Sequence record: PV419677.1
Direction: 5' to 3' (one strand)
Origin: a phage
DNA: 64,000 bases
Shown here: piece after piece, positions 3,707 to 60,756 of the stretch
How the letters are laid out: every line of letters begins with the position of its first letter
Position numbering within the stretch: position 1 is the first letter of the stretch
Made by a program: the position numbers and the translations under genes
The notes under the pieces: model-generated
Told to the model about the DNA's origin: nothing
The model's input: only the letters and a program-made list of their open reading frames with translations
The model's database searches: none

Positions 3707-4321
3707 TTAGTTCAAAACAGTCAAATGCCAAACAGTATACAGGTTATTCAATGGGTGTGTTTCAATCAAGTCTACGCGGAGCGTAGTCCCAGCGGGAAAC
3801 ATAAACTCATCTTCATCATTAACCAGGTGCAAGTTTGACTTCCTGGTTGCTTCTGGATATGCACCATTGAACTCTTCAGGAGGAGCACCACAAATCATTT
3901 TGAAGATTGCTTCCTGATAGTTATACGCATATGGTGCATTGTTTATGCAGAAAATATTCCTTGTTCCATAGAAACTGTATGATGCGAAATTTCTTGCAAC
4001 CTGCCAGTCCCTGGAAAAACTCATTACACGATTGAATTCAATTGTTGCCCCAACATATCTTAAATCTTCCAGGTATTCCATAGTTTTCTTTGATATACCA
4101 CGGAACAACGCCGCTGGCGGGGCAGTATTCAGATTGTTGCGGATAATCCTGGACAAGTCTTCTTGAATCAGGTCAGGTTTATTTTCCATACACTGCCAGA
4201 GTACTGATTGCTCATTATCTGTATAAAGAGCATCAATCTCCGCTTGACATTGGTTACGAAAAGACTCACTAGAAGCGGCGGTGTCAATAATTCCATTCAA
4301 AACGTCATCAGTGTATAGCAT
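3707..4321 (-). CDS. modA: ADP-ribosyltransferase, ModA-like
   Basis: R-S-E signature (LFRG, SFS, EDEFMFP); about 204 aa after trimming start to ATG at 4319-4321 with SD; position as T4 modA. Confidence 0.65.
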   Translation of the reverse strand: MLYTDDVLNGIIDTAASSESFRNQCQAEIDALYTDNEQSVLWQCMENKPDLIQEDLSRIIRNNLNTAPPAALFRGISKKTMEYLEDLRYVGATIEFNRVMSFSRDWQVARNFASYSFYGTRNIFCINNAPYAYNYQEAIFKMICGAPPEEFNGAYPEATRKSNLHLVNDEDEFMFPAGTTLRVDLIETHPLNNLYTVWHLTVLN

Positions 4322-4352
4322 TTTATTATCCTCATCAGTAGTTGATAGGAAC

Positions 4353-4385
4353 ATCTTAACGTGTCTTATTGTTCTTGTACACAGT
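4353..4385 (-). promoter_or_regulatory. early promoter-like element upstream of modA
   Basis: TGTACA -35, 17-nt spacer, weaker -10 TAAGAT, then conserved CTATCAACTACTGATGAGG leader. Confidence 0.35.
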
Positions 4386-4926
4386 CAAGAACATAATAAT
4401 CATCAATAAATCCAGCATCAACTACCACGAATTTCTGGTCAACTGGAACAAACCATTCAAGCTCGGAATCAATCATGTCCATGTATTCTTCACGCCTTAA
4501 TGTAGCTGCCCGGTCGGAACCAGAAGCTGTATTGAAGAATTCAAGTGGAACATCAAGTGCGATTTTGCGCATCGCATCATGGTAACAAAAAGCTTTGGTC
4601 TGATTCAATCTGACGATAGTCCTAGTCACATATTCCATTGCAGCAAAATCCCTGGCAATACCATAGTCTTCTGTAAAGGAGGTTATCCGTCCAAATTCAA
4701 AAGGTTGCATTGATTCTTTTGCTTCATCTAACAAATCAATCTCTTGCTGGGTTACTCCGCGCCACAAGACTGTATCGGGTATAGACAACCTTGACTTGAT
4801 GATTGAGTTGACATTTGAATGCAAGGTCTTATCAACCTTTGATGTGCGGCATTCAAATAATGAAGCTATCTCCATTTCACTAAATTTTAACTGGTTGGGT
4901 TCGGTATCAGATTTGATGATGTTCAT
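4366..4926 (-). CDS. modB: ADP-ribosyltransferase, ModB-like
   Basis: 186 aa, similar architecture to the adjacent ModA-like gene (LWRG, SFTEDYGIARDF, acidic C-terminal E-x-E region). Confidence 0.6.
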   Translation of the reverse strand: MNIIKSDTEPNQLKFSEMEIASLFECRTSKVDKTLHSNVNSIIKSRLSIPDTVLWRGVTQQEIDLLDEAKESMQPFEFGRITSFTEDYGIARDFAAMEYVTRTIVRLNQTKAFCYHDAMRKIALDVPLEFFNTASGSDRAATLRREEYMDMIDSELEWFVPVDQKFVVVDAGFIDDYYVLDCVQEQ

Positions 4927-4982
4927 AATGGTCTCTCTGTTGTAAGAAAGACCATTATGACATTAGGAGGGGAGTAAGTAAA

Positions 4983-5252
4983 CTACTTAAATACTCCAAG
5001 TGGAACGCCAAAGACTGCAATGTCTACGGCCATACCAATCGGAGATTGATATGATGGAGATTGATATGATGAGTAAGAACTTTTCGATTTTATCGGGGTT
5101 TCGACTTTAATTGTCTCGGATTCAGTCTTAAGCCTTTGTAAACGATTAATTTTTTGTTGCTCGATTTCCTTATGAGCATGTTTACGGTCGATATCCAGCG
5201 CCGATGTGGGAATATTTGTTAACCAGTTCATTGTTTCACCCATGGTGCCCAT
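4983..5252 (-). CDS. hypothetical protein with Ser/Tyr-rich repeat
   Basis: 89 aa; contains SYQSPSYQSP encoded by an exact 15-bp tandem duplication at 5041-5070. Confidence 0.45.
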   Translation of the reverse strand: MGTMGETMNWLTNIPTSALDIDRKHAHKEIEQQKINRLQRLKTESETIKVETPIKSKSSYSSYQSPSYQSPIGMAVDIAVFGVPLGVFK

Positions 5253-7671: not shown

Positions 7672-7697
7672 ATTATATCATATTGGTTTGAAGCATA
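7672..7697 (-). promoter_or_regulatory. putative MotA-dependent middle promoter upstream of gene 56
   Basis: minus strand TTATGCTTCAAA (MotA-box-like TGCTTCA) 11 nt upstream of TATAAT. Confidence 0.45.
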
Positions 7698-15857: not shown

Positions 15858-17267
15858 TTAAAAATCAAACATATCAAAAAGAGATGCTTTTTTCTCGTAA
15901 TCAACCTTAGCTGCTTCAGAGAACCCTGTTAACGGTTTGACAAAAGTCTTCTGGAACAGTGTGTTGTAGTCCATCCACTGCAAGACTTGGTCACGGATTT
16001 CAATCGGGAGTTCAATCCCAGATGGCCATGCAATCACGGTTTCACCAAACGGGTTGCCGACTTTAAGAGGAAGTACATACACCTTTTCCCCTTCCATGAT
16101 TTGTGGAACAGTCTTCAGACCTTTAGTTGCACGCATATATGCAAGCACACCTTTGATATGAGCCGGGCACTTAAATCCAGGGAAACCACCCTCATTATAT
16201 TTCTGAATGTTGTTAACCGATGATACACCTGCGATGGTCATGTAGTTAAGCTCATTAAATTCCTTATTGAATTCCTTGAAGTATGTCTGCAGAGATTCTT
16301 CACCTTCTTGCAGCATGCGACGGATACATTCTTTCAGAGCTTTCTGACATGCTTTTGGTGTGCTCGACTTTTGAGTTTCCAGACCCATGATTTTCAGTTT
16401 CGGAACAGCATATCGTGTGCCTTCCATATCGTACACATTCAGAGCATAACGCTTCTTCGCTGTCCAGAATCCACCAACACCTTTAGAACCAAGCGGAGGA
16501 CATGCAATCGCTTCACGGTCCATAAACATAAGGTGCTGTTTGTTGTTCATGTATTCAGCCAGTTCACGGAAAGCTTTATCGATTGCCGGTTCCAGACGGT
16601 CTTTCGCAAACTTGTCCATGAAGTCAACCAGGTGGTTTGTATCGCGGAATTTCGATTCGCCACCAACCTTTTTAATCAGGTTATCGCACTGGATATAAAT
16701 GGAGTCAGTATCGCCATAGAATACATATGTTTCACCACTTGTACCACAAACACTATCAAAATATTCGTTAACTTTACGCTCAATCCACTGCAATGCAAGT
16801 TGTCCGAAAGATGTAATCGCGGTTGCATTTCGCAGGTCAAAGTAACGGAACCAGATATTTCCCACAATTTTGTTCAGTTGAAGTCGTTAATTTCAACCCG
16901 GAATTATATCCAGCTGCATGTTGCCATGCAGAGCAGACTATATCATCATCTTTCGATGCCATGCGCTTCCAGCCACTTGGCTGTACTCCTTTCGGATAGT
17001 CGTTGCACGTTCCTATAATAGGCTTCGCTCAGGATTGTCTCATAGAGATGTCCCCTGAATTCACATGGTTTAAAGTGCGCCGGAATACTTGGTTAACGCA
17101 CCATAACAACTGTTGATAAGCAATTTGCGGTTAATCTGTGCAGTATTTGCCGCAATTTCTGCCATTTGCGAATTATGCAAATGACTTTCCAAATCCGCCC
17201 TTGATAATGTTTTTAAATATGCAATTTGCGAATCATCAAAATCTATATTATAATCAATATTCATCAT
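15858..17267 (-). CDS. 43: DNA polymerase C-terminal subunit gp43B, two exons: join(15858..16864, 17096..17267) if the intron is spliced
   Basis: exon 1 encodes motif B KLLINSCYGAL, exon 2 encodes GNIWFRY... and motif C YGDTDS; both in the same frame, separated by 231 nt with stops. Confidence 0.75.
16865..17095 (-). other. putative ORF-less group I intron in gene 43
   Basis: exon ends in U pairing with G of an internal GCGCAC guide; R-like CAACGACUAU and S-like GAUAUAGUC can form P7; GNRA hairpin CUGCAUG-GCAA-CAUGCAG; last nucleotide G. Confidence 0.6.
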
Positions 17268-18082
17268 TTATTCCTACAGTTATCAAAATGCCAACGTTTC
17301 ATGCCTGCTAATATACCTTCTTTTCCACAATGTGGACAAACTGCTTTAACCTCTTTTGCTTGTTTCCAATATTCCTTTCTGGCATCAGAAATAGCTTGAT
17401 TGTGTTCATCTGAATTTTTGTGTCCCAATCTGGTTTTAACGATATCTGGATTTTTAGCAACACGTTCTTTCATAAACTCAGATTTCGCTGCACGCATTTC
17501 TGGTGTCCAGGCATCGGAGCATTTTTGTTTGTGGTCGTCGGATATAGTTCCATTTTTCAGCACAGACTCATTGTTCTTATAATGTTCAATTAAACTTTGT
17601 GAACGTTTTTGACAAGTTTCTACCGAGTGTTTTGTTCCAGTATTTTTAATTGAGGCGATTTTAAAATTATCAATTGAAATTTTATTGTAATAATCTGGAT
17701 TTTGGGCCCGGGTATATTTGATACTATCGGAAACCTTTTTGGCAACTACTGGATTATGCATCGCATTTGGTAAATTTAAAGAATTGACATAATCCCACCC
17801 ACCTTTACCACCTGGGGTTAAATTATATGTGTCAGTACGTGTGATAAATTCATTATCAACTAATTTGGCTTCAAGTGCATATGCATCATCTTCGTTATCA
17901 AATTCAGCAATGATTGATTTGACCAGGTTATGCTTGCCATATTTTTCTTTCGCAGCTTTCACAATGGGACCCGAACCCAGATAATCATCCAACAAATTAT
18001 AAGATTCACATTTATGAACTCCAATGTAAATCTTATCGTTCACTAAATTTTTAATTTGATAAACAGTGTATACATTTTTCAT
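17264..18082 (-). CDS. GIY-YIG homing endonuclease (seg-like) inserted in gene 43
   Basis: 272 aa; N-terminal VYQIKNLVNDKIYIG, NLTPGGKGG; C-terminal zinc finger CPHCGKEGILAGMKRWHFDNC; own SD AAGGAG. Confidence 0.7.
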   Translation of the reverse strand: MKNVYTVYQIKNLVNDKIYIGVHKCESYNLLDDYLGSGPIVKAAKEKYGKHNLVKSIIAEFDNEDDAYALEAKLVDNEFITRTDTYNLTPGGKGGWDYVNSLNLPNAMHNPVVAKKVSDSIKYTRAQNPDYYNKISIDNFKIASIKNTGTKHSVETCQKRSQSLIEHYKNNESVLKNGTISDDHKQKCSDAWTPEMRAAKSEFMKERVAKNPDIVKTRLGHKNSDEHNQAISDARKEYWKQAKEVKAVCPHCGKEGILAGMKRWHFDNCRNK

Positions 18083-18104
18083 AATGTCTCCTTAATTTAA
18101 AAAT

Positions 18105-18138
18105 ATTTTAGCGCGCTTCCTTGCGCTTGTACAACTTA
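18105..18138 (-). promoter_or_regulatory. promoter-like element upstream of the gene-43 HEG
   Basis: TTGTACAA -35, 18-nt spacer, TAAAAT -10. Confidence 0.35.
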
Positions 18139-19659
18139 AAGATGGTTTAAAAGGTCTTTAATCAATTCACTATTACGTTGTGCCGCCAACATCTTTTTCT
18201 TTTCGGTTTTTCGTTGATTAAAAACTTTCTCAACTTCTGTCGGAATAATACCTGCAACATCTTTAAAATACATCATGCCATTTGGAGCACAACTAAATGT
18301 ATCAGATGGACGGTCAGCAGTTCCTGCGATGTATTCATACATCGGCGCAGGAGCAAATGAACCGGCAATCGTTTCTGGACTGATGTTAATCTGTCGGATG
18401 ATGCTCGGATACAGAGATGTCAAGTCACAGCTCATAACGTATTTGTATGCGTTCGGAATCGGTTCCTTAACAAATGCACCAGGGAATGATTGACGAACAT
18501 GCGATTTGGTTTCCGGAATGACTTTGTTTTGAGTCTTCAGGCTGTTAAAGATAATCGCATCCCAAGTTTTGATTGGGCTGAATACAGACTGAATCTGCAT
18601 TTTTGCGTAATAACCCATTGACTGGCTAAGGTTAATAAACTGGCGCTTACGGTCAATCTGTACAACACGATAAACATCGATGATGTTATAAGAAATATAC
18701 CGTTGGTGATTTGATTCACGCAGTTTAGAAATCGGACCATCATACGGGAGTTTACCAACACCCAGCTCAGATTCCGCAACATAATCCAACGAATAAGACG
18801 GTTGGTTTGTGAAGCTGAACTTTTTATACAGGTCCAGATAATCCAGAACAGAGATACCCAGAATCTGAATGATTTCTTGTTCTTCACCAAAGCCGTTGTT
18901 AATTACTTTAACTTTTGTACGACGATGTGGGCTCAGACGTTTTGCTGTGGCTTCACCAAATACATTTTTAAGGCGGTTGTAGATATACGGAATATCAAAC
19001 TTCTCGATGTTCCAACCAGTTAACATAACCGGAGTTTTCTCGTTCCAGAATACCAAATACTGCTGGAGCATTTCTTCTTCTGAATCGAAAGCCATATAAA
19101 CAATTTTTTCCAGGATTTCTTCAGGGACTTCATCGCCGCCATCTTCTTGCAGCTTGGCAGCAATATCAATAGACCATTGCTCCACAGTGGCGTATGGTGA
19201 GCTCAAAAGGTCAAAGACATAGAATTTATCGTCTACCGAATCATAGTGCGTCAGGGCATCAATAGGGTGACGTGCTTCAGACGGCTCAGGGAACCCATCC
19301 GGAGATGTCACCTCGATATCGAAGTTAGCCACACGGATTTTACTTGAATCGTATTTGATTTCGTGTGGATAACGGTCGGACAAGTATGCGAGTTTAAAGT
19401 CATCCATACCCATAGCTTCGAGACCCATGTCATTCATTCGCTTCATCCACTGGGATGCATCACGCATGGAATCGAATTCTTTTTTCACACAACCTTTATT
19501 ATAGATGTCTGTATACTTTGCAGCCTGGTCTTCGCGAGCATGCATAAACAAGCATGGAGCATAAGGGATTTCACGAACACGTTCATGACCATTCTTGTCA
19601 ATGTATCGTTCAAGCAGATTGTCACCGATTTGTTCGATAGTTAAATAAAATTCTTGCAT
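18136..19659 (-). CDS. 43: DNA polymerase N-terminal subunit gp43A (N-terminal and 3'-5' exonuclease region)
   Basis: 507 aa; N-terminus MQEFYLTIEQIGDNLLERYID matches remembered T4 gp43; ends in-frame with stop before the HEG. Confidence 0.9.
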   Translation of the reverse strand: MQEFYLTIEQIGDNLLERYIDKNGHERVREIPYAPCLFMHAREDQAAKYTDIYNKGCVKKEFDSMRDASQWMKRMNDMGLEAMGMDDFKLAYLSDRYPHEIKYDSSKIRVANFDIEVTSPDGFPEPSEARHPIDALTHYDSVDDKFYVFDLLSSPYATVEQWSIDIAAKLQEDGGDEVPEEILEKIVYMAFDSEEEMLQQYLVFWNEKTPVMLTGWNIEKFDIPYIYNRLKNVFGEATAKRLSPHRRTKVKVINNGFGEEQEIIQILGISVLDYLDLYKKFSFTNQPSYSLDYVAESELGVGKLPYDGPISKLRESNHQRYISYNIIDVYRVVQIDRKRQFINLSQSMGYYAKMQIQSVFSPIKTWDAIIFNSLKTQNKVIPETKSHVRQSFPGAFVKEPIPNAYKYVMSCDLTSLYPSIIRQINISPETIAGSFAPAPMYEYIAGTADRPSDTFSCAPNGMMYFKDVAGIIPTEVEKVFNQRKTEKKKMLAAQRNSELIKDLLNHL

Positions 19660-39156: not shown

Positions 39157-40002
39157 TTAATCCTTAAGAAGATTTAAGATATCGATATATTTCTGACGTT
39201 CAGCCTTGGCCTTAGCATTCAGACCAGAGAGTCGGAAAATCTCATCATCTTGTTGTTGAATTGTAACATTCAAGCAAGTAAGCAAATTGCTAAAATACTC
39301 GATTTGAGCTTGATGTTTCTCATTGCTGCGCACTGGAACAGGTTCCATTTTAGGAGCTTGCTCTGAAGGCTCCTCAGCCTGGTCTTTAATTTTATAAAGT
39401 TTAATACGCTGACCCACTCCAGTTTCGGCATCACCAAAACTAAGAACGCCGTGCTGTTCTAATTCAGACAGGGCCAAGCGGAGATGGAACTTCCAGTTGT
39501 CATATTGACAACCACTAAAAGTTGAAATGGTATACTCATTTTCATTTCCGGGGTGGTTAACAATATTAAAGATAATCCAATCACCTGAACCGTTAGTCTT
39601 AAATGTCATTTGTTTATCAAGACCTTTTGCAAGACGAGCACCAAGGGCCAGTAGACGACGTTGATTAGTATTAAGGTCTTTAACAACTTCGCCAAATGAC
39701 ATCGCCGGGATTAAACGACCATAAAGGTCGTAGCCTTTGTTATAATTTTTAAGAATAATTTTGGCATTAGCACGAGACAACATACCTGTTTTACGAAGAG
39801 TTTTCATGACTCGGTCTTCTAAGGTAAACGAACCTTTAGTCTTGTCAAAGATTTTAGTGAAGTCATCTTTAACAGTACAAACATTGAACTTGTCCCACAT
39901 CATATATAGGACCTTTTCAACCACTTCTTTAGTGCTTGGAATACTGTTAAATTTAACAACTTTTTTAACTTCAGAACGAATTTCATTAATTGCTTGTGAC
40001 AT
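39157..40002 (-). CDS. hypothetical protein
   Basis: 281 aa ORF. Confidence 0.5.
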   Translation of the reverse strand: MSQAINEIRSEVKKVVKFNSIPSTKEVVEKVLYMMWDKFNVCTVKDDFTKIFDKTKGSFTLEDRVMKTLRKTGMLSRANAKIILKNYNKGYDLYGRLIPAMSFGEVVKDLNTNQRRLLALGARLAKGLDKQMTFKTNGSGDWIIFNIVNHPGNENEYTISTFSGCQYDNWKFHLRLALSELEQHGVLSFGDAETGVGQRIKLYKIKDQAEEPSEQAPKMEPVPVRSNEKHQAQIEYFSNLLTCLNVTIQQQDDEIFRLSGLNAKAKAERQKYIDILNLLKD

Positions 40003-40065
40003 AATAATTTCCTCAATAGATTAATCAAAGGTCAGAACCATTATACCATCCTTGGTATAAAGCGT

Positions 40066-40656
40066 TTATGCGAGAACCGTCTTTAAACGCTCTTCAAACT
40101 TCTGAAGGAGTACCTGGCGCTCTGCTCTTTGTTTGGTATAGGTTTCAATACGCTCTGAAGTGAGATTGTATTGTTCATTAACTGATTCCCTCATGAATTC
40201 AGGAATCTCTTTACATGCTTTGATTTCATTGAACTTATCAAGCACCGCTTGTTGTTCAGCAATCAGACCATCATAATATTGGATATCTGATTTGATGTTT
40301 TGTACATCAGATTCAGTTGGCATGTTTTTCTTCGCTCTTGCTGCTTGATACTCAGCATTAGTCTCTCTTGACCAGAATAAAGAACGGTTTTTATTGGTGT
40401 TTTTATACACATCAACAATACCAACTGAATCAACAGTCACAATCCAGTTCCAGGCGTTTTTATAAGTTTGACCACCTGATACTGTAATCTCACCAGCACA
40501 AGCAACATCATTAAAGAACTTGCTTTGTGCTTCTGATTTAAAATTACCATTATTGTAATTAATCAGGTTAAAGATTGATTTGGCTTCCATTTTATTCTCC
40601 AGTATTTGGTAACTCAGTATGGGAACATTATACGCCCATCCCCATACCATGTACAC
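40066..40656 (-). CDS. hypothetical protein
   Basis: 196 aa ORF; early promoter/leader motif upstream at 40600-40660; start may be internal. Confidence 0.45.
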   Translation of the reverse strand: MYMVWGWAYNVPILSYQILENKMEAKSIFNLINYNNGNFKSEAQSKFFNDVACAGEITVSGGQTYKNAWNWIVTVDSVGIVDVYKNTNKNRSLFWSRETNAEYQAARAKKNMPTESDVQNIKSDIQYYDGLIAEQQAVLDKFNEIKACKEIPEFMRESVNEQYNLTSERIETYTKQRAERQVLLQKFEERLKTVLA

Positions 40657-40658
40657 AT

Positions 40659-40961
40659 TTAATTAAAAGTTCTTTCAGTATTTTCACCACTGAACCAGAC
40701 GCTCTTAACGGCTTGCTGGGCGCGATGGAGCTGCTCTGCCATATAAACACCAAGGGCCTCAGCTTTACGCGTTCTGTGAGCTTCTGCGGCGACCATTTGC
40801 AGCTTATCCATCATGATAAGAGCTTTGCATTTCTCCTTCAGAGCATATCGCTTCTTCTCTTCTGGAGTTTTGACCATTCCTCTTAACTTGTGCATTTTCA
40901 ACTTAAAATGGTCAGCAGATTTCAGACATGCCTCAATCATGTCAAGTTCATACTTTTTCAT
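40659..40961 (-). CDS. hypothetical protein
   Basis: 100 aa ORF. Confidence 0.45.
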   Translation of the reverse strand: MKKYELDMIEACLKSADHFKLKMHKLRGMVKTPEEKKRYALKEKCKALIMMDKLQMVAAEAHRTRKAEALGVYMAEQLHRAQQAVKSVWFSGENTERTFN

Positions 40962-40967
40962 AATTCC

Positions 40968-41174
40968 TCACTTGCGACGACGTTTTGGTAATGGTTTAGG
41001 GAAGAACATTGCTTTACCGGCAGGGGTCAAAGTCACACGCAAAGCATTACCAATACCAAGGGATGCTTTAACCAGACCTTTGGCTTTTAACTCACCAAAT
41101 GCTTGACGTTGTTCAGGGTCACGAGTGTTAACCATCAGACCTTTTTCACCAGCAGCTTTGATTAATTCTAACAT
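40968..41174 (-). CDS. hypothetical basic protein
   Basis: 68 aa ORF downstream of promoter 41216-41252. Confidence 0.45.
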   Translation of the reverse strand: MLELIKAAGEKGLMVNTRDPEQRQAFGELKAKGLVKASLGIGNALRVTLTPAGKAMFFPKPLPKRRRK

Positions 41175-41215
41175 TTTATTCTCCGTTTGTTTATTTGGTA
41201 ACTCAGTATGGAATC

Positions 41216-41252
41216 ATTATGCATCATGACCATCTGGTTGTACACTACTTTT
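41216..41252 (-). promoter_or_regulatory. T4-type early promoter
   Basis: AAAAAGTAGTGTACAA, 17-nt spacer, CATAAT, then GATTCCATACTGAGTTACC leader. Confidence 0.55.
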
Positions 41253-41260
41253 TAAAATAA

Positions 41261-41285
41261 AAAAGGACCCCGAAGGGTCCTTAGA
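41261..41285 (-). terminator. intrinsic terminator (UUCG tetraloop hairpin)
   Basis: minus strand GGACCC-TTCG-GGGTCC followed by TTTTT, directly after the 41288-42328 gene. Confidence 0.6.
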
Positions 41286-41287
41286 AT

Positions 41288-42328
41288 TTAACGATAATAG
41301 GAATTGTGGTTGTCAAGATATACCTCCTCAACAAACTTGTCCCAGAACTTCATGTCCACCTTCGCAGGCATACCATTCTTAGCAGCCTGGATGGCCAGAA
41401 CTTCAACTAAATCGACAGTATCTTCAAGAAGTTCTTGAACTTCTTTAAATGGTAATTCACCAGCTTTAATCAGCTTAATGATAGAGGCTTCACGCAATGG
41501 GAATACCAAGTCACCTGTTTGGTAGATTTCCATCAATTGATACCCTGCACGATATGCATGGCTCAGTGCTTTCCAGTCAATACCTTCATTAGCTTCAGCC
41601 TTACGAGCACGTTCACCATATTCGGCGTCGAGTTTATCCAGAGATTGCTTGAGCTCGATTAATGATAGAGTAGTTTGGTATTTACGACCGAGGACAGTAT
41701 AGAACGTTTGAGGACCTGTTTTCTCATGGTTATGAAATACCCATTCGCAGAACTCGTTTTCAGGGAGTCGATGTTTGATATCTTCTACCTTAGTGCGACG
41801 TTGCTTAGTCGAACCGTCTTCTTGATAATCAACCCACTGTTCAGGAATCTGATTAACGATTGCCAGTACACCACGCAGTGCAGCCAATCGAGAACCTTTA
41901 ACACCATATTTGGAAGCTTGCTTACGGACATACCCCAAATAGGCTTTCATGTTAGTTGTATAGAACCGCGAACGGTTGTCTTGAATAAACTTCCATACAT
42001 CTGGTAAATCGGATTTGACTACCAGGTCAGCCGGTGTGTGAATCATATCCAGAGCAACGGTTTCGCCTTCAGCAGCCAGTTTAAAGAAATATTTCAGACT
42101 ATAAAGTTCATGGTCAACATCATCTTTTGTATTTTTGGTAGCCGTGTTATTCGTGTTCAGGTTGGTATGGTTCATCGCGGTTCCGAGCAGGATATCTCGC
42201 GGATGAGGAACAAAGATTTCTTTAAAATCGACATCAGATTCCGGAGTACTTGTTCCATAAAGGTGGGAGCCAAAATATCCCTTCATAACAGTTCTCATTT
42301 TTTGTCCTCGAAGTGGATTACAGGGCAC
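41288..42328 (-). CDS. predicted nucleotidyltransferase (Pol-beta superfamily motif)
   Basis: 346 aa; N-terminal GSHLYGTSTPESDVD fits the GS-x9-13-DxD NTase signature. Confidence 0.45.
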   Translation of the reverse strand: MPCNPLRGQKMRTVMKGYFGSHLYGTSTPESDVDFKEIFVPHPRDILLGTAMNHTNLNTNNTATKNTKDDVDHELYSLKYFFKLAAEGETVALDMIHTPADLVVKSDLPDVWKFIQDNRSRFYTTNMKAYLGYVRKQASKYGVKGSRLAALRGVLAIVNQIPEQWVDYQEDGSTKQRRTKVEDIKHRLPENEFCEWVFHNHEKTGPQTFYTVLGRKYQTTLSLIELKQSLDKLDAEYGERARKAEANEGIDWKALSHAYRAGYQLMEIYQTGDLVFPLREASIIKLIKAGELPFKEVQELLEDTVDLVEVLAIQAAKNGMPAKVDMKFWDKFVEEVYLDNHNSYYR

Positions 42329-42747
42329 ATCTTAGATTTACGAGCTTTAATGTATTGAATAACGATGTTTTCTTTAGTTTCCTTTCCTTCACGTTTGGCT
42401 AGAATACGTTGCCATTCCTTTTCTTCTTTACGTAAATCATACCAGGACCATAAATTCATTAGACCATACATTAAACCAAATGCTACCGCCAGAATAAGAG
42501 CCAGTGTAGCTAGTCCTAAAATAAACCCTAAACCTAAACCAACCGGGGTACTTAATACAAAGAAATGCTCTAATACACCAGCCCCCGCGACAGTGAATCC
42601 AAAAACCACACTACCGATAAAAATGGCACAAACAAAACAGGCCCAAACCATTTTCCAAAAGTAAGCACACAATGAGTGTGGACGAGAATGGCGGTCATAA
42701 AATTTATCGTGGAAACGAGCATGCCAAGAGTTTGCATTGATAATCAT
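42295..42747 (-). CDS. membrane protein
   Basis: 150 aa, multiple hydrophobic helices. Confidence 0.45.
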   Translation of the reverse strand: MIINANSWHARFHDKFYDRHSRPHSLCAYFWKMVWACFVCAIFIGSVVFGFTVAGAGVLEHFFVLSTPVGLGLGFILGLATLALILAVAFGLMYGLMNLWSWYDLRKEEKEWQRILAKREGKETKENIVIQYIKARKSKMCPVIHFEDKK

Positions 42748-42757
42748 AATATTTTCC

Positions 42758-43318
42758 TTAAGAGTTCATAGTTGGGATAACAGAGTTCAGATAAGAGACT
42801 AAAACTTTTAGCTCGTCTTTAGTAAATACGACTTCACTTTCACCGTCATGTCTTTGGACAATGGACAACAAGTCACGACCGTTATGTTGAACAACAGTCA
42901 GTTCAGTATTATAATTCAATTCCTCTTCATCGCCTTCAAACGTTTCACTAGAACGAATCAGTGCATCTTGACCTGGGACTTTCCATTCAACTTCTGGTTT
43001 ACATTCTTCCTGGAAGAGTTTGAAAATACAATCAAAGAATTTATCAGAATCGCTAATGCTCAGGCATTCTATACCATTTTCCAGATTAAACCCATTTTCA
43101 TTTTTATAGATATAAGCGTATAGCTCATCGTTAATATCGACAGGAGCACTATGACGACCGTTAAGATATTCATCTTTATCCAAAACCATTAAATCATAAA
43201 GTGGTTTAATATCAGCGATAGTCAGTACGATTTTATCGTCTTCTTGACAAAGCTCAATTGCGTTATTAACTACTTCAGCGGTCAGTTCGCCAAACAATTC
43301 AGTTGTTTCAATAATCAT
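42758..43318 (-). CDS. hypothetical acidic protein
   Basis: 186 aa ORF. Confidence 0.5.
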   Translation of the reverse strand: MIIETTELFGELTAEVVNNAIELCQEDDKIVLTIADIKPLYDLMVLDKDEYLNGRHSAPVDINDELYAYIYKNENGFNLENGIECLSISDSDKFFDCIFKLFQEECKPEVEWKVPGQDALIRSSETFEGDEEELNYNTELTVVQHNGRDLLSIVQRHDGESEVVFTKDELKVLVSYLNSVIPTMNS

Positions 43319-43328
43319 TTTCTGTTCC

Positions 43329-43601
43329 TCAACGGTTATGTTTTAAAATACTATAAAGCTCTTCGACTTGGTCTGCATTCAGACAAATCATATCATTTTC
43401 TTGCTGGATTGTGATTCCACCTTTTTCTTCCCAATCTTTAACAAAGATGTCATCGTCGGATTCTTCATCATCTGCTAAAAGGACAATAATACCATCTTCA
43501 GAATTACCACTCGGGTCATATAACATTACAGTTTCCTCGCTAACCATGAAAAGAATAAACCAATTAAAACAGGTCCTACAGCCATTGTTAACCAAGCCCA
43601 A
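43329..43601 (-). CDS. hypothetical protein
   Basis: 90 aa ORF. Confidence 0.4.
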   Translation of the reverse strand: MGLVNNGCRTCFNWFILFMVSEETVMLYDPSGNSEDGIIVLLADDEESDDDIFVKDWEEKGGITIQQENDMICLNADQVEELYSILKHNR

Positions 43602-43617
43602 GGTTCAAGATAGTAAA

Positions 43618-43875
43618 TCATCTCATGCTCCTGTGCCAACAATTTCGTGGCTCACGTTTAAAAATTTCATCATGCATTGATTGACAACCAACACAATATA
43701 TCACACCTTTAATCGCTTGTCTCCGCGCTTCAGGAATTTTTTCGTCGCAGTCAAAACAGAATTCAGCAGACTCCCTTTCAACTGCAACTTGTGCTCTCGC
43801 ATGGGTGATAGCGGCTTGGACAACCGCTTCCATCTCTAACTGTTCAGCACCATCTTTTGCAAATCCAACAGCCAT
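43618..43875 (-). CDS. DksA/TraR-type C4 zinc-finger protein
   Basis: 85 aa; CFDCDEKIPEARRQAIKGVIYCVGCQ (CxxC-x17-CxxC). Confidence 0.5.
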   Translation of the reverse strand: MAVGFAKDGAEQLEMEAVVQAAITHARAQVAVERESAEFCFDCDEKIPEARRQAIKGVIYCVGCQSMHDEIFKREPRNCWHRSMR

Positions 43876-44057
43876 TATTCTTTCAACTCATTAAGATACT
43901 CAACCAATGCTGCTTTAGAATTCGCTAAATCTCGTTTACACTGCTCTATTCCGGAATATGAATAGCCTTCACAATGTTCAACAGCCAATTCATAAGAGTT
44001 AATTTCAACATCACGAGCGAGTTTGATAATTTTTTCAATCTGTTCAGTAGTTAACAT
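43875..44057 (-). CDS. hypothetical protein
   Basis: 60 aa ORF. Confidence 0.35.
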   Translation of the reverse strand: MLTTEQIEKIIKLARDVEINSYELAVEHCEGYSYSGIEQCKRDLANSKAALVEYLNELKE

Positions 44058-44061
44058 AATA

Positions 44062-44298
44062 TCACCAGTATTTTTTGATGGTAGAAATTAATTCTTGGAT
44101 TTGAGTGGTCTTCAGCTTACACCCACACCCCCTTAAGGTGTCTTTAAGGAGCCATGGCTCCTTGAGCTCGTCCTTTTCCATGCGGATTCTATATCCGCGG
44201 TAATCAGCAAATATGCTTCCGTCATCAAATATCTTAATTTCAAGAATATGATTATTGGTTTCATATTCCAATGAAACCATGGTATTTGTAAGTTTCAT
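44062..44298 (-). CDS. hypothetical protein
   Basis: 78 aa ORF. Confidence 0.4.
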   Translation of the reverse strand: MKLTNTMVSLEYETNNHILEIKIFDDGSIFADYRGYRIRMEKDELKEPWLLKDTLRGCGCKLKTTQIQELISTIKKYW

Positions 44299-44501
44299 TA
44301 TTCCACCACATATGATAATGAGAAAATTGCTGATGAAAGATGAGTAGCATCTTCTTCACACAGTTCAAATGGAGCTTTCTGTAAGAGTTCAACCACTTCT
44401 TCATCAGTGGCACTGTCCATAAAGATTGCATAATCATTAAGATAGATAACAACCTCATCACCAGTATTAACTGCATTAATCTTGATATTTTTAATTCTCA
44501 T
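44298..44501 (-). CDS. hypothetical protein
   Basis: 67 aa ORF. Confidence 0.4.
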   Translation of the reverse strand: MRIKNIKINAVNTGDEVVIYLNDYAIFMDSATDEEVVELLQKAPFELCEEDATHLSSAIFSLSYVVE

Positions 44502-44569
44502 TGTGTTCTCCTCAGTAGTTGATGGGATAATAGTACACCCTTTTTATGAGGATGTAAACCCCTTAATGA

Positions 44570-44599
44570 AAAAAGGTCCACCCGAAGGCAGACCTTTTG
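44570..44599 (-). terminator. intrinsic terminator hairpin
   Basis: minus strand GGTCTGCC-TTCG-GGTGGACC followed by TTTTT. Confidence 0.5.
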
Positions 44600-44601
44600 A
44601 A

Positions 44602-44985
44602 TTACTCTAATGTTAACAGATACTTAGTCTGAAAGAAAACTCCAACGATATCGTCCAGAGTCGATTGAATAGCCTTAGGTACAACTTTATAGACTCTTTC
44701 CGAGCTTTTAATCATTTCATCTAAAAACAAAATTGTATCTTTCGGCAAGTCCGAGGCGGACGGTAATGCAGCTTTGTATTGTTTCCCGCTGTAACCTAAC
44801 CATTGCTCACTGAACTGGTCGAGTGGACCTTGGATTTCTGTGAAGTAGAAATCATAAGCTTTATGGCGGGCGTAACTTTTGGTTTCAAGATGGGCGGACT
44901 TAAAATAAGCCAAAGAGACTAACAACCACCCAATATATGAATCCACCTCAGACCCACGACCCGTTACGAAATCATCAAATTTCAT
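44602..44985 (-). CDS. hypothetical protein (rI.1 position)
   Basis: 127 aa ORF downstream of rI. Confidence 0.45.
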   Translation of the reverse strand: MKFDDFVTGRGSEVDSYIGWLLVSLAYFKSAHLETKSYARHKAYDFYFTEIQGPLDQFSEQWLGYSGKQYKAALPSASDLPKDTILFLDEMIKSSERVYKVVPKAIQSTLDDIVGVFFQTKYLLTLE

Positions 44986-45268
44986 CTTCCAATTTTACCT
45001 TCATTAATTTAGCGTACTCGACTGCAGCAGCCCGGCCATCAATTTGACATGTGATTTCATTTACACATTGACTCTTATTGTTCCATTCAGTTTTAATAAA
45101 AGCCCAAAATTGTTCGGACTGCTCGACGCTGGGTTCTTTGAATTGCGAATAGATTTGCATCGCACTATCTGCATACTGGGTAAATTTACCATCTGTAGCA
45201 GAGGACATATTTGGGCCTAAACAGCCCATTAGTAATAGACTTAGAGAAAGTCCTCGAATAAGGTCCAT
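44975..45268 (-). CDS. rI: lysis inhibition regulator RI-like
   Basis: 97 aa; signal-anchor N-terminus; SVEQSEQFW and C-terminal AYARxMxxKLE resemble remembered T4 RI; located next to tk. Confidence 0.6.
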   Translation of the reverse strand: MDLIRGLSLSLLLMGCLGPNMSSATDGKFTQYADSAMQIYSQFKEPSVEQSEQFWAFIKTEWNNKSQCVNEITCQIDGRAAAVEYAKLMKVKLEDEI

Positions 45269-45340
45269 AAGGACTCCTATTGTTGGTCATGATTACGCTT
45301 TGCAGCCTTAACATAGCGGAATACTAGTTAGTAACTGTAT

Positions 45341-60360: not shown

Positions 60361-60599
60361 TGCTCGGCTTACGGCAAAGATATTCCCTCGAATCGATAAT
60401 TCTGTGCGCCGTTTCAGCTGTGATATAAGGGGACATCAACAAATCGTAAAGATTTATTAATGCCAGTCCTTAAACAGGGAACTTCAGTCCGACGACTTAC
60501 CGGTAGCGACCCGGTTTCTTGTTTGTTGCGCCGGTGAATGCTGATAATCAGTCTTCATACGACGGCTTGACTATATAATAGTCTTCATTTGGTATCCCG

Positions 60600-60674
60600 C
60601 CCTGGGATCGAACCAGGACCGCAAACTTAGAAGGATCGTATGCTATCCATTACACCAGCGGGACATAGTTGGTG
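60600..60674 (-). tRNA. tRNA-Arg (anticodon UCU)
   Basis: hand-folded cloverleaf: acceptor GTCCCGC/GCGGGAT, anticodon loop CTTCTAA, T-loop TTCGATC, encoded CCA. Confidence 0.75.
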
Positions 60675-60679
60675 ACCCA

Positions 60680-60756
60680 GACCAGATTTGAACTGGTAAC
60701 CTTTCCCTTATGAGGGGACTGCTGCTAACCATTGAGCTACAGGGCCTTAATTCTAT
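60680..60756 (-). tRNA. tRNA with anticodon CAU (Ile2 or Met type)
   Basis: hand-folded: acceptor GGCCCTG/CTGGGTC, anticodon loop CTCATAA, T-arm ACCAG-TTCAAAT-CTGGT, encoded CCA. Confidence 0.65.

Follow-up and report, generated by a model that had tools for sequence, protein, structure and literature searches.

The Pnkp/Rnl1 pathway of phage T4 was the first RNA-repair system to be discovered. RloC-type nucleases excise a nucleotide after cutting tRNA, and this type of damage raises the question of whether a trimmed tRNA can be repaired to a working form. Burroughs and Aravind coined the name 'RlaP' for the protein family PF10127 because of its link with RNA ligases. They predicted that RlaP puts back nucleotides that damaged RNA has lost, such as the wobble base removed by RloC, before the RNA is ligated, a prediction cited and restated for jumbo phages (PMC7824862).

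A preprint of December 2025 by Carruthers, Fatma and Huang reports that RlaPs from Pseudomonas add one or two NMPs to the 3'-OH ends of RNA (PMC12776372). This addition is known for PfRlaP and PaRlaP only, and Mn2+ is preferred (PMC12776372). The two enzymes label E. coli RNAs of rRNA, tRNA and fragment size as well as single-stranded RNAs, use all four NTPs, favour the 5' half of a cleaved-tRNA mimic, and act on neither DNA nor proteins, with E. coli proteins left unlabelled (PMC12776372). When RlaP acted before ligation by T4 RNA ligase 1, aminoacylation was partially rescued for a tRNA lacking one anticodon-loop nucleotide (PMC12776372). The same study places T4 NrdC.11 in cluster 5 of its PF10127 similarity network, with its function given as unknown, whereas PfRlaP and PaRlaP fall in cluster 1a (PMC12776372). 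The papers we found on 'nrdC.11' carry no functional data. T4 survives loss of the block from nrdC.11 to mobD.3, and under laboratory conditions it can do without its nrdC.11.

Here we analyse an nrdC.11 gene on the minus strand of a 64,000-nucleotide stretch of phage DNA (sequence record PV419677.1), called the window below. The gene is already known: it has been catalogued, and its family has been published together with a prediction of function. Since the biochemistry of a member has been published as well, no new kind of element comes from the window. The sole mildly new point is the placement of the phage protein in a long RlaP branch, and the analysis also has practical value in a corrected start codon and in exposing a widespread misannotation.

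Results

Identity, start codon and annotation of the gene

Across 1.9 kb around the gene, the window is 92-95% identical to several phages of the SP18/VR20 group (Gaprivervirus), and the gene is almost certainly nrdC.11 of a T4-like phage of this type. The encoded protein is 99% identical to deposited proteins of TH55 and UPEC07, 92.6% identical to SP18 nrdC.11 and about 82% identical to T-even orthologs, and the vibriophage KVP40 homolog, also named nrdC.11, retains about 30% identity. Altogether 1,522 phage records carry a homolog. The orthologs of T4, SP18, VR20 and JS98, at 82-93% identity, have the same length as the studied gene and lie, like it, in the interval from mobD to nrdC.9; the lineage studied here differs from the T4 type in having no nrdC.10 nearby, which is not material.

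The sequence-only reading described a 346-aa protein at 41288-42328, which is the length of the minus-strand open reading frame when counted from a GTG. The reading frame stands, but its start is probably the ATG at 42298, giving 336 aa, and not the GTG at 42328. We prefer the ATG because a Shine-Dalgarno-like GAGGA precedes it, because it forms an overlapping ATGA with the upstream gene's stop codon (both read from the sequence), because 336 aa is the length of nearly all deposited orthologs, including the VR20 RefSeq CDS, and because residue 1 then pairs with residue 1 of bacterial homologs in the alignment. The codons between 42299 and 42328 are thus probably not translated as part of NrdC.11. 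The SP18 RefSeq entry starts at the next Met, giving 332 aa. Coordinates are collected in Table 1.

Table 1. Features of the nrdC.11 locus, in window positions; residues are numbered from the ATG.
Feature	Position	Strand	Evidence and remarks
Intrinsic terminator	41253..41282	-	8-bp GC-rich stem, UUCG tetraloop, U-tract
nrdC.11 coding sequence (probable)	41288..42298	-	336 aa plus TAA stop (41288..41290); ORF, ATG context and deposited orthologs
C-terminal helical domain, residues 213-335	41294..41662	-	HEPN-like / NTase-substrate-binding-like bundle in the model; invariant Y227, G228, R230, D241, W242, K243, S246, H247, R250
Beta-rich insertion, residues 154-208	41675..41839	-	Long RlaP branch; absent in short RlaP model (AF2 secondary structure compared)
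First helical segment, residues 99-148	41855..42004	-	Invariant patch Y123, Q127, Y131-G132, K134-G135, R137
Pol-beta NTase alpha/beta core, residues 1-95	42014..42298	-	Predicted beta1, GS-helix, beta2, helix, two strands, two helices, strand
D84, further conserved acidic residue, helix 80-85	42047..42049	-	D in 70/73, E in 3/73; aligns to invariant E104 of short RlaPs
D62, candidate third catalytic carboxylate, strand 61-67	42113..42115	-	D in 69/73, E in 4/73; aligns to invariant D82 of short RlaPs
D22-V-D24, predicted metal-binding DxD, strand beta2 (model strand 23-30)	42227..42235	-	Invariant in 73/73; aligns to D49/D51 of short RlaPs
G10-S11, hG[GS] motif (F9-G10-S11, after strand beta1)	42266..42271	-	Invariant in 73/73; aligns to G37-S38 of short RlaPs
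Ten-codon extension upstream from GTG	42299..42328	-	Inside upstream gene; homologs begin at ATG
Shine-Dalgarno-like GAGGA	42305..42309	-	6 nt before ATG; read from sequence
Membrane-protein gene, 150 aa (PHROG 944)	42295..42747	-	Upstream; translationally coupled to nrdC.11 by ATGA overlap

RefSeq already labels the protein a nucleotidyltransferase. Many GenBank and UniRef entries instead say 'thioredoxin', and others 'HNH homing endonuclease' or 'ArsR family regulator', names for which the Pfam scan gives no support. As the scan shows nothing thioredoxin-like, 'thioredoxin' looks like a spill-over from the neighbouring nrdC gene or from the gene name nrdC.11.

In the annotation of Acinetobacter phage vB_ApiM_fHyAci03 the ortholog (locus L004, 3992..5023) is divided into two same-frame CDSs, 3992-4426 and 4448-5023, although tblastn gives a single alignment. 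The division suggests an internal stop codon, and the gene may be split or a pseudogene.

Family membership and active site

The sequence-only reading assigned the protein to the nucleotidyltransferase superfamily on a GS...D-x-D signature in the string GSHLYGTSTPESDVDFKEIFV, which is present at the N-terminus of NrdC.11. The signature holds: G10, S11, D22 and D24 are invariant in 73/73 aligned homologs that range from 28 to 96% identity to NrdC.11. This invariance, together with a score of 48.2 bits against the Pfam RlaP model (PF10127; gathering score 23), argues that the motif is not a chance occurrence. Loss of the catalytic acidic residues on alignment, which would have spoken against the assignment, is not seen; D22 and D24 never vary, and every one of the 73 homologs has an acidic residue at positions 62 and 84, as well as at 64 (E or D in 73/73). 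In the structural model a beta-strand carries D62, which is where the third carboxylate is canonically found, and D84 lies in a helix. Further invariant residues are found in the helical part of the protein (Table 1).

The match to PF10127 spans only model positions 25-142 of 249 and is thus not full-length. PHROG 388, 'nucleotidyltransferase', matches end to end (E = 4e-131), and all listed homologs carry a precomputed PF10127 label. A search of 1.84 billion representative proteins returned 3,211 clusters with E <= 0.001, of which 827 reach E <= 1e-30; of the best 150, nearly all are about 300-360 aa long and match most of the query length. The RlaP score, the PHROG 388 match and the Pol-beta core in the model support the superfamily assignment, and it is close to certain from these comparisons that NrdC.11 is a Pol-beta/RlaP-family enzyme with an intact predicted active site.

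The NCBIfam search returned only a sub-threshold match to MntA (15.8 bits against a cutoff of 60) that covers residues 8-25, the generic GS...D motif. PADLOC returned no significant model, its only hit being PDC-S09 (E = 0.004, residues 9-25), and no Pfam model for Mab-21, SMODS/CD-NTase or OAS matched at E <= 1.

Predicted structure

The AlphaFold2 model of NrdC.11 is a confident one, with a mean pLDDT of 89.6 and a pTM of 0.75. Structure prediction and a fold search, the check put forward with the sequence-only reading, recover the alpha/beta fold of nucleotidyltransferases. That reading had likened the fold to minimal NTases, OAS and cGAS/CD-NTases. The Pol-beta core is indeed there; the closest matches, however, are HalB, 3c18 and kanamycin nucleotidyltransferase, and no cGAS, OAS or CD-NTase chains are among the top PDB fold matches of the model. 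Many nucleotidyltransferases of phages and giant viruses match the model in a viral structure library. Searches of the PDB by sequence, with the single sequence and with a 73-sequence profile, returned nothing meaningful, and the PfRlaP crystal structure was not among the PDB matches by sequence or by fold.

These matches are distant. HalB (PDB 9dbh) belongs to the Hailong defence system, in which it has the HalA channel as its partner and makes poly-dA from a protein primer; it shares 13% identity with NrdC.11 over only 135 aligned residues. The kanamycin nucleotidyltransferase ANT(4') and the NTase-like protein 3c18 share 7-12% identity, with global TM-scores of only 0.25-0.28; enzymes of the ANT(4') and 3c18 type have small-molecule substrates.

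A divergent long branch of RlaP

The characterised RlaPs appear to be of a canonical short type, and in the comparisons below the short paralog of bacterial Pnkp/Hen1 operons stands in for PfRlaP. The Pfam RlaP model matches this short protein with 244 bits over positions 1-247 of 249, whereas on every long-type protein tested it covers the N-terminal half only, with 24-49 bits. Profile alignment of long against short RlaPs by hhalign is confined to the NTase core (98 columns, E = 0.034), and the C-terminal halves do not align. In AlphaFold models the core elements of the two types follow the same order, while the long type lacks the N-terminal helix and carries the beta-rich insertion at 154-208. 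A helical C-terminal domain is structurally present despite the partial Pfam match, and we therefore place NrdC.11 in a divergent 'long' branch of RlaP and not outside the family. With PfRlaP and PaRlaP it shares the Pfam family, a core of GS, DxD and third Asp, and an N-terminal NTase domain followed by a helical domain. The Pseudomonas enzymes differ in being encoded in rtcB-rlaP-rtcA operons, whereas nrdC.11 here lies outside any ligase operon.

Long RlaPs also occur in bacteria. Those in metagenomic loci L006-L009 are 34-36% identical to NrdC.11 over the whole length (E about 1e-60) and have the same invariant residues. The order of genes in the bacterial loci is small ORF, long RlaP, short RlaP, Hen1, Pnkp; Hen1-Pnkp is found in all four loci, and RtcB is nearby in three of them. 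In bacteria the long RlaP thus has another setting than the phage protein: its gene is part of a repair operon, forms a tandem with that of a short RlaP and follows a gene for a protein of 107-120 aa. That long and short RlaPs stand in tandem suggests that the two types are not redundant and have different jobs.

The tandem arrangement in Pnkp/Hen1 operons can be seen at 7678..9828 of L006 and 7642..9799 of L009. The 107-120-aa protein before the tandem has no Pfam match and is 64% identical between these two loci; neither the window nor KVP40 or Cr30 has a counterpart of it.

Neighbourhood and transcription

The nrdC.11 gene is the last of a tight run of genes on the same strand (gaps of -4 to 100 nt), with a gap of 113 nt after it. 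Its neighbours are nrdC.x and mobD.x genes, as they are in SP18 and VR20, which agrees with the nrdC.x-type surroundings noted at first reading. The strong UUCG terminator that the same reading placed after the gene is borne out. The hairpin begins 6 nt past the TAA stop and reads AAGGACCC-UUCG-GGGUCCUU followed by a U-run (41282..41253 (-)); its 8 bp include 5 GC pairs, and its folding energy of -14.2 kcal/mol lies at z = -3.3 relative to shuffled sequences. A strict regular-expression search of the minus strand from 41150 to 45300 found no MotA-box, T4 early-like or late promoters, and sigma-70-like sites near nrdC.11 occur in a chance-level number.

The upstream gene for a predicted membrane protein is context only and not a conserved partner of nrdC.11. 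One Acinetobacter phage has a homolog of this protein, 26% identical, two genes ahead of its nrdC.11 ortholog, and at least one T-even record (RB10) has mobD at this place; in KVP40, Cr30 and the bacterial loci the upstream neighbour is different and the PHROG 944 protein is absent from that side.

Downstream, in the minus-strand interval 39157..41174 of the window, nrdC.11 is followed by a 68-aa ORF (PHROG 6001), nrdC.9, nrdC.8 and nrdC.6, and the lineage has no nrdC.10. The latter gene encodes a P-loop NTPase according to an Acinetobacter phage annotation, and fHyAci03 has an NrdC.10-like gene at the third place downstream of its nucleotidyltransferase gene.

No RNA-ligase or repair genes are adjacent to nrdC.11 in the window. 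The close relative VR20 carries pseT and rnlA about 86 kb from its nrdC.11; such distant placement of partners is usual for T4 early genes. In one environmental phage contig, genes for a T4-type Pnkp and an RNA ligase lie no more than 7 kb from the long RlaP gene, and two other phage-like contigs have no repair genes within that distance.

Discussion

The identity of the gene, its family, its fold, the conservation of its catalytic residues and the genomic association of its subfamily with RNA-repair genes are shown here. Judging from homology, NrdC.11 is likely to add nucleotides to RNA 3' ends, and we infer that the phage protein would have the same activity as the distant RlaPs. We consider it reasonably probable that NrdC.11 is an active RlaP enzyme that adds one or two untemplated nucleotides to RNA 3'-OH ends, chiefly those of trimmed tRNA 5' halves, before repair by Pnkp and Rnl1. 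The best-supported physiological substrate would be a tRNA that a nuclease has trimmed and that then passes to Pnkp/Rnl1. In such a pathway, a host RloC-type anticodon nuclease would cut a tRNA in the anticodon loop and then trim it, NrdC.11 would add one or two untemplated nucleotides to the 3'-OH of the 5' half, and phage Pnkp (pseT) and RNA ligase 1 (rnlA) would rebuild a full-length tRNA, with some of the product functional. If NrdC.11 restores the missing nucleotide, it would be an added step in a classic phage-host arms race and would explain why nrdC.11 is retained in more than 1,500 sequenced phages. Counting against this role are the restriction of the Pfam match to the N-terminal half of long-type proteins, a profile alignment limited to the 98 core columns, the tandem occurrence of long and short forms in bacteria, which suggests different jobs, the position of nrdC.11 away from pseT and rnlA, and the dispensability of the T4 ortholog.

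The rivals to this role fall in plausibility from other roles at RNA 3' ends, through nucleotidylylation of a protein or small molecule and HalB- or CD-NTase-like synthesis, to an inactive relic. The enzyme could act on RNA 3' ends with another target, such as trimmed tRNA 3' CCA ends, acceptor-stem damage, or host or phage RNAs whose stability is altered by tailing. PfRlaP and PaRlaP label many RNA classes with all four NTPs, which points to a loose specificity (PMC12776372), two tRNAs are encoded in the window, and the long branch has a C-terminal domain of its own and a beta insertion, features that might make it specific for other RNAs. The bacterial relatives of this subfamily nevertheless keep company with the break-repair enzymes Pnkp and Hen1 (and RtcB), and the 5' half of a cleaved-tRNA mimic is what the family enzyme favours (PMC12776372), so we give another RNA target some weight while thinking it unlikely. 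Those genomic partners, being RNA-repair enzymes, also argue against nucleotidylylation of a protein or small molecule, be it AMPylation of a HEPN-type RNase toxin, as by MntA on HepT, or modification of a defence signal. MntA itself matches with only 15.8 bits (cutoff 60) over residues 8-25, PADLOC offers no significant model, and RlaPs left E. coli proteins unlabelled (PMC12776372); such a target is improbable.

Synthesis of an oligonucleotide or nucleotide signal by a HalB-, CD-NTase- or OAS-like enzyme, for example an oligo-dA that keeps a host Hailong channel closed, is more improbable still. The likeness to HalB was examined because a membrane-protein gene is translationally coupled upstream. 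The similarity is limited to the shared NTase core, however, and no CD-NTase, SMODS, Mab-21 or OAS model matches; the membrane protein, which has no PADLOC match, is a member of PHROG 944, a phage family, and is not paired with the homologs of NrdC.11 in KVP40, Cr30 or the bacterial loci examined. A Hailong-like pairing is rejected on the absence of a HalA-like match (PADLOC 2.0.0, which may lack Hailong models), the PHROG 944 membership and the changing neighbour. That the protein is catalytically dead or a purely structural relic is hardly credible. The dispensability of the gene in T4 and the annotation of the Acinetobacter phage ortholog as two same-frame CDSs would fit such a relic, but the motif residues are invariant across 28-96% identity and full length is kept in 827 representative clusters at E <= 1e-30.

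The preferred reading, nucleotide addition to trimmed tRNA halves, admits a bolder version. The long type's missing N-terminal helix, its beta-rich insertion, its own conserved C-terminal domain and its tandem occurrence with the short type led us to ask whether NrdC.11-type RlaPs are functionally distinct from short ones and are the specific enzymes that let T4-like phages undo wobble-nucleotide excision of the RloC type. We regard this as a speculative and rather doubtful idea. If true, it would add a further round to the arms race between PrrC and Pnkp-Rnl1, possibly with a selectivity for substrate or nucleotide that PfRlaP lacks.

Other elements of the window

Rfam identifies two tRNA genes on the minus strand of the window (60593..60664 and 60673..60746); VR20 annotates tRNA-Arg(TCT) and tRNA-Met(CAT) at a comparable position of its collinear region. 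Elsewhere, within 15858..19659 (-), a group I intron (Rfam RF00028, 81.4 bits over the full-length model; core at 16914..17127) divides the family-B DNA polymerase gene, gene 43, into exon ORFs at 18136..19659 and 15858..16865. Between these exon ORFs lies a 272-aa GIY-YIG ORF (17264..18082), probably a homing endonuclease. The closest relatives align only up to the exon edge of gene 43, and the insertion is thus absent in them; phages G2285, PSD2002 and TH15 share part of it.
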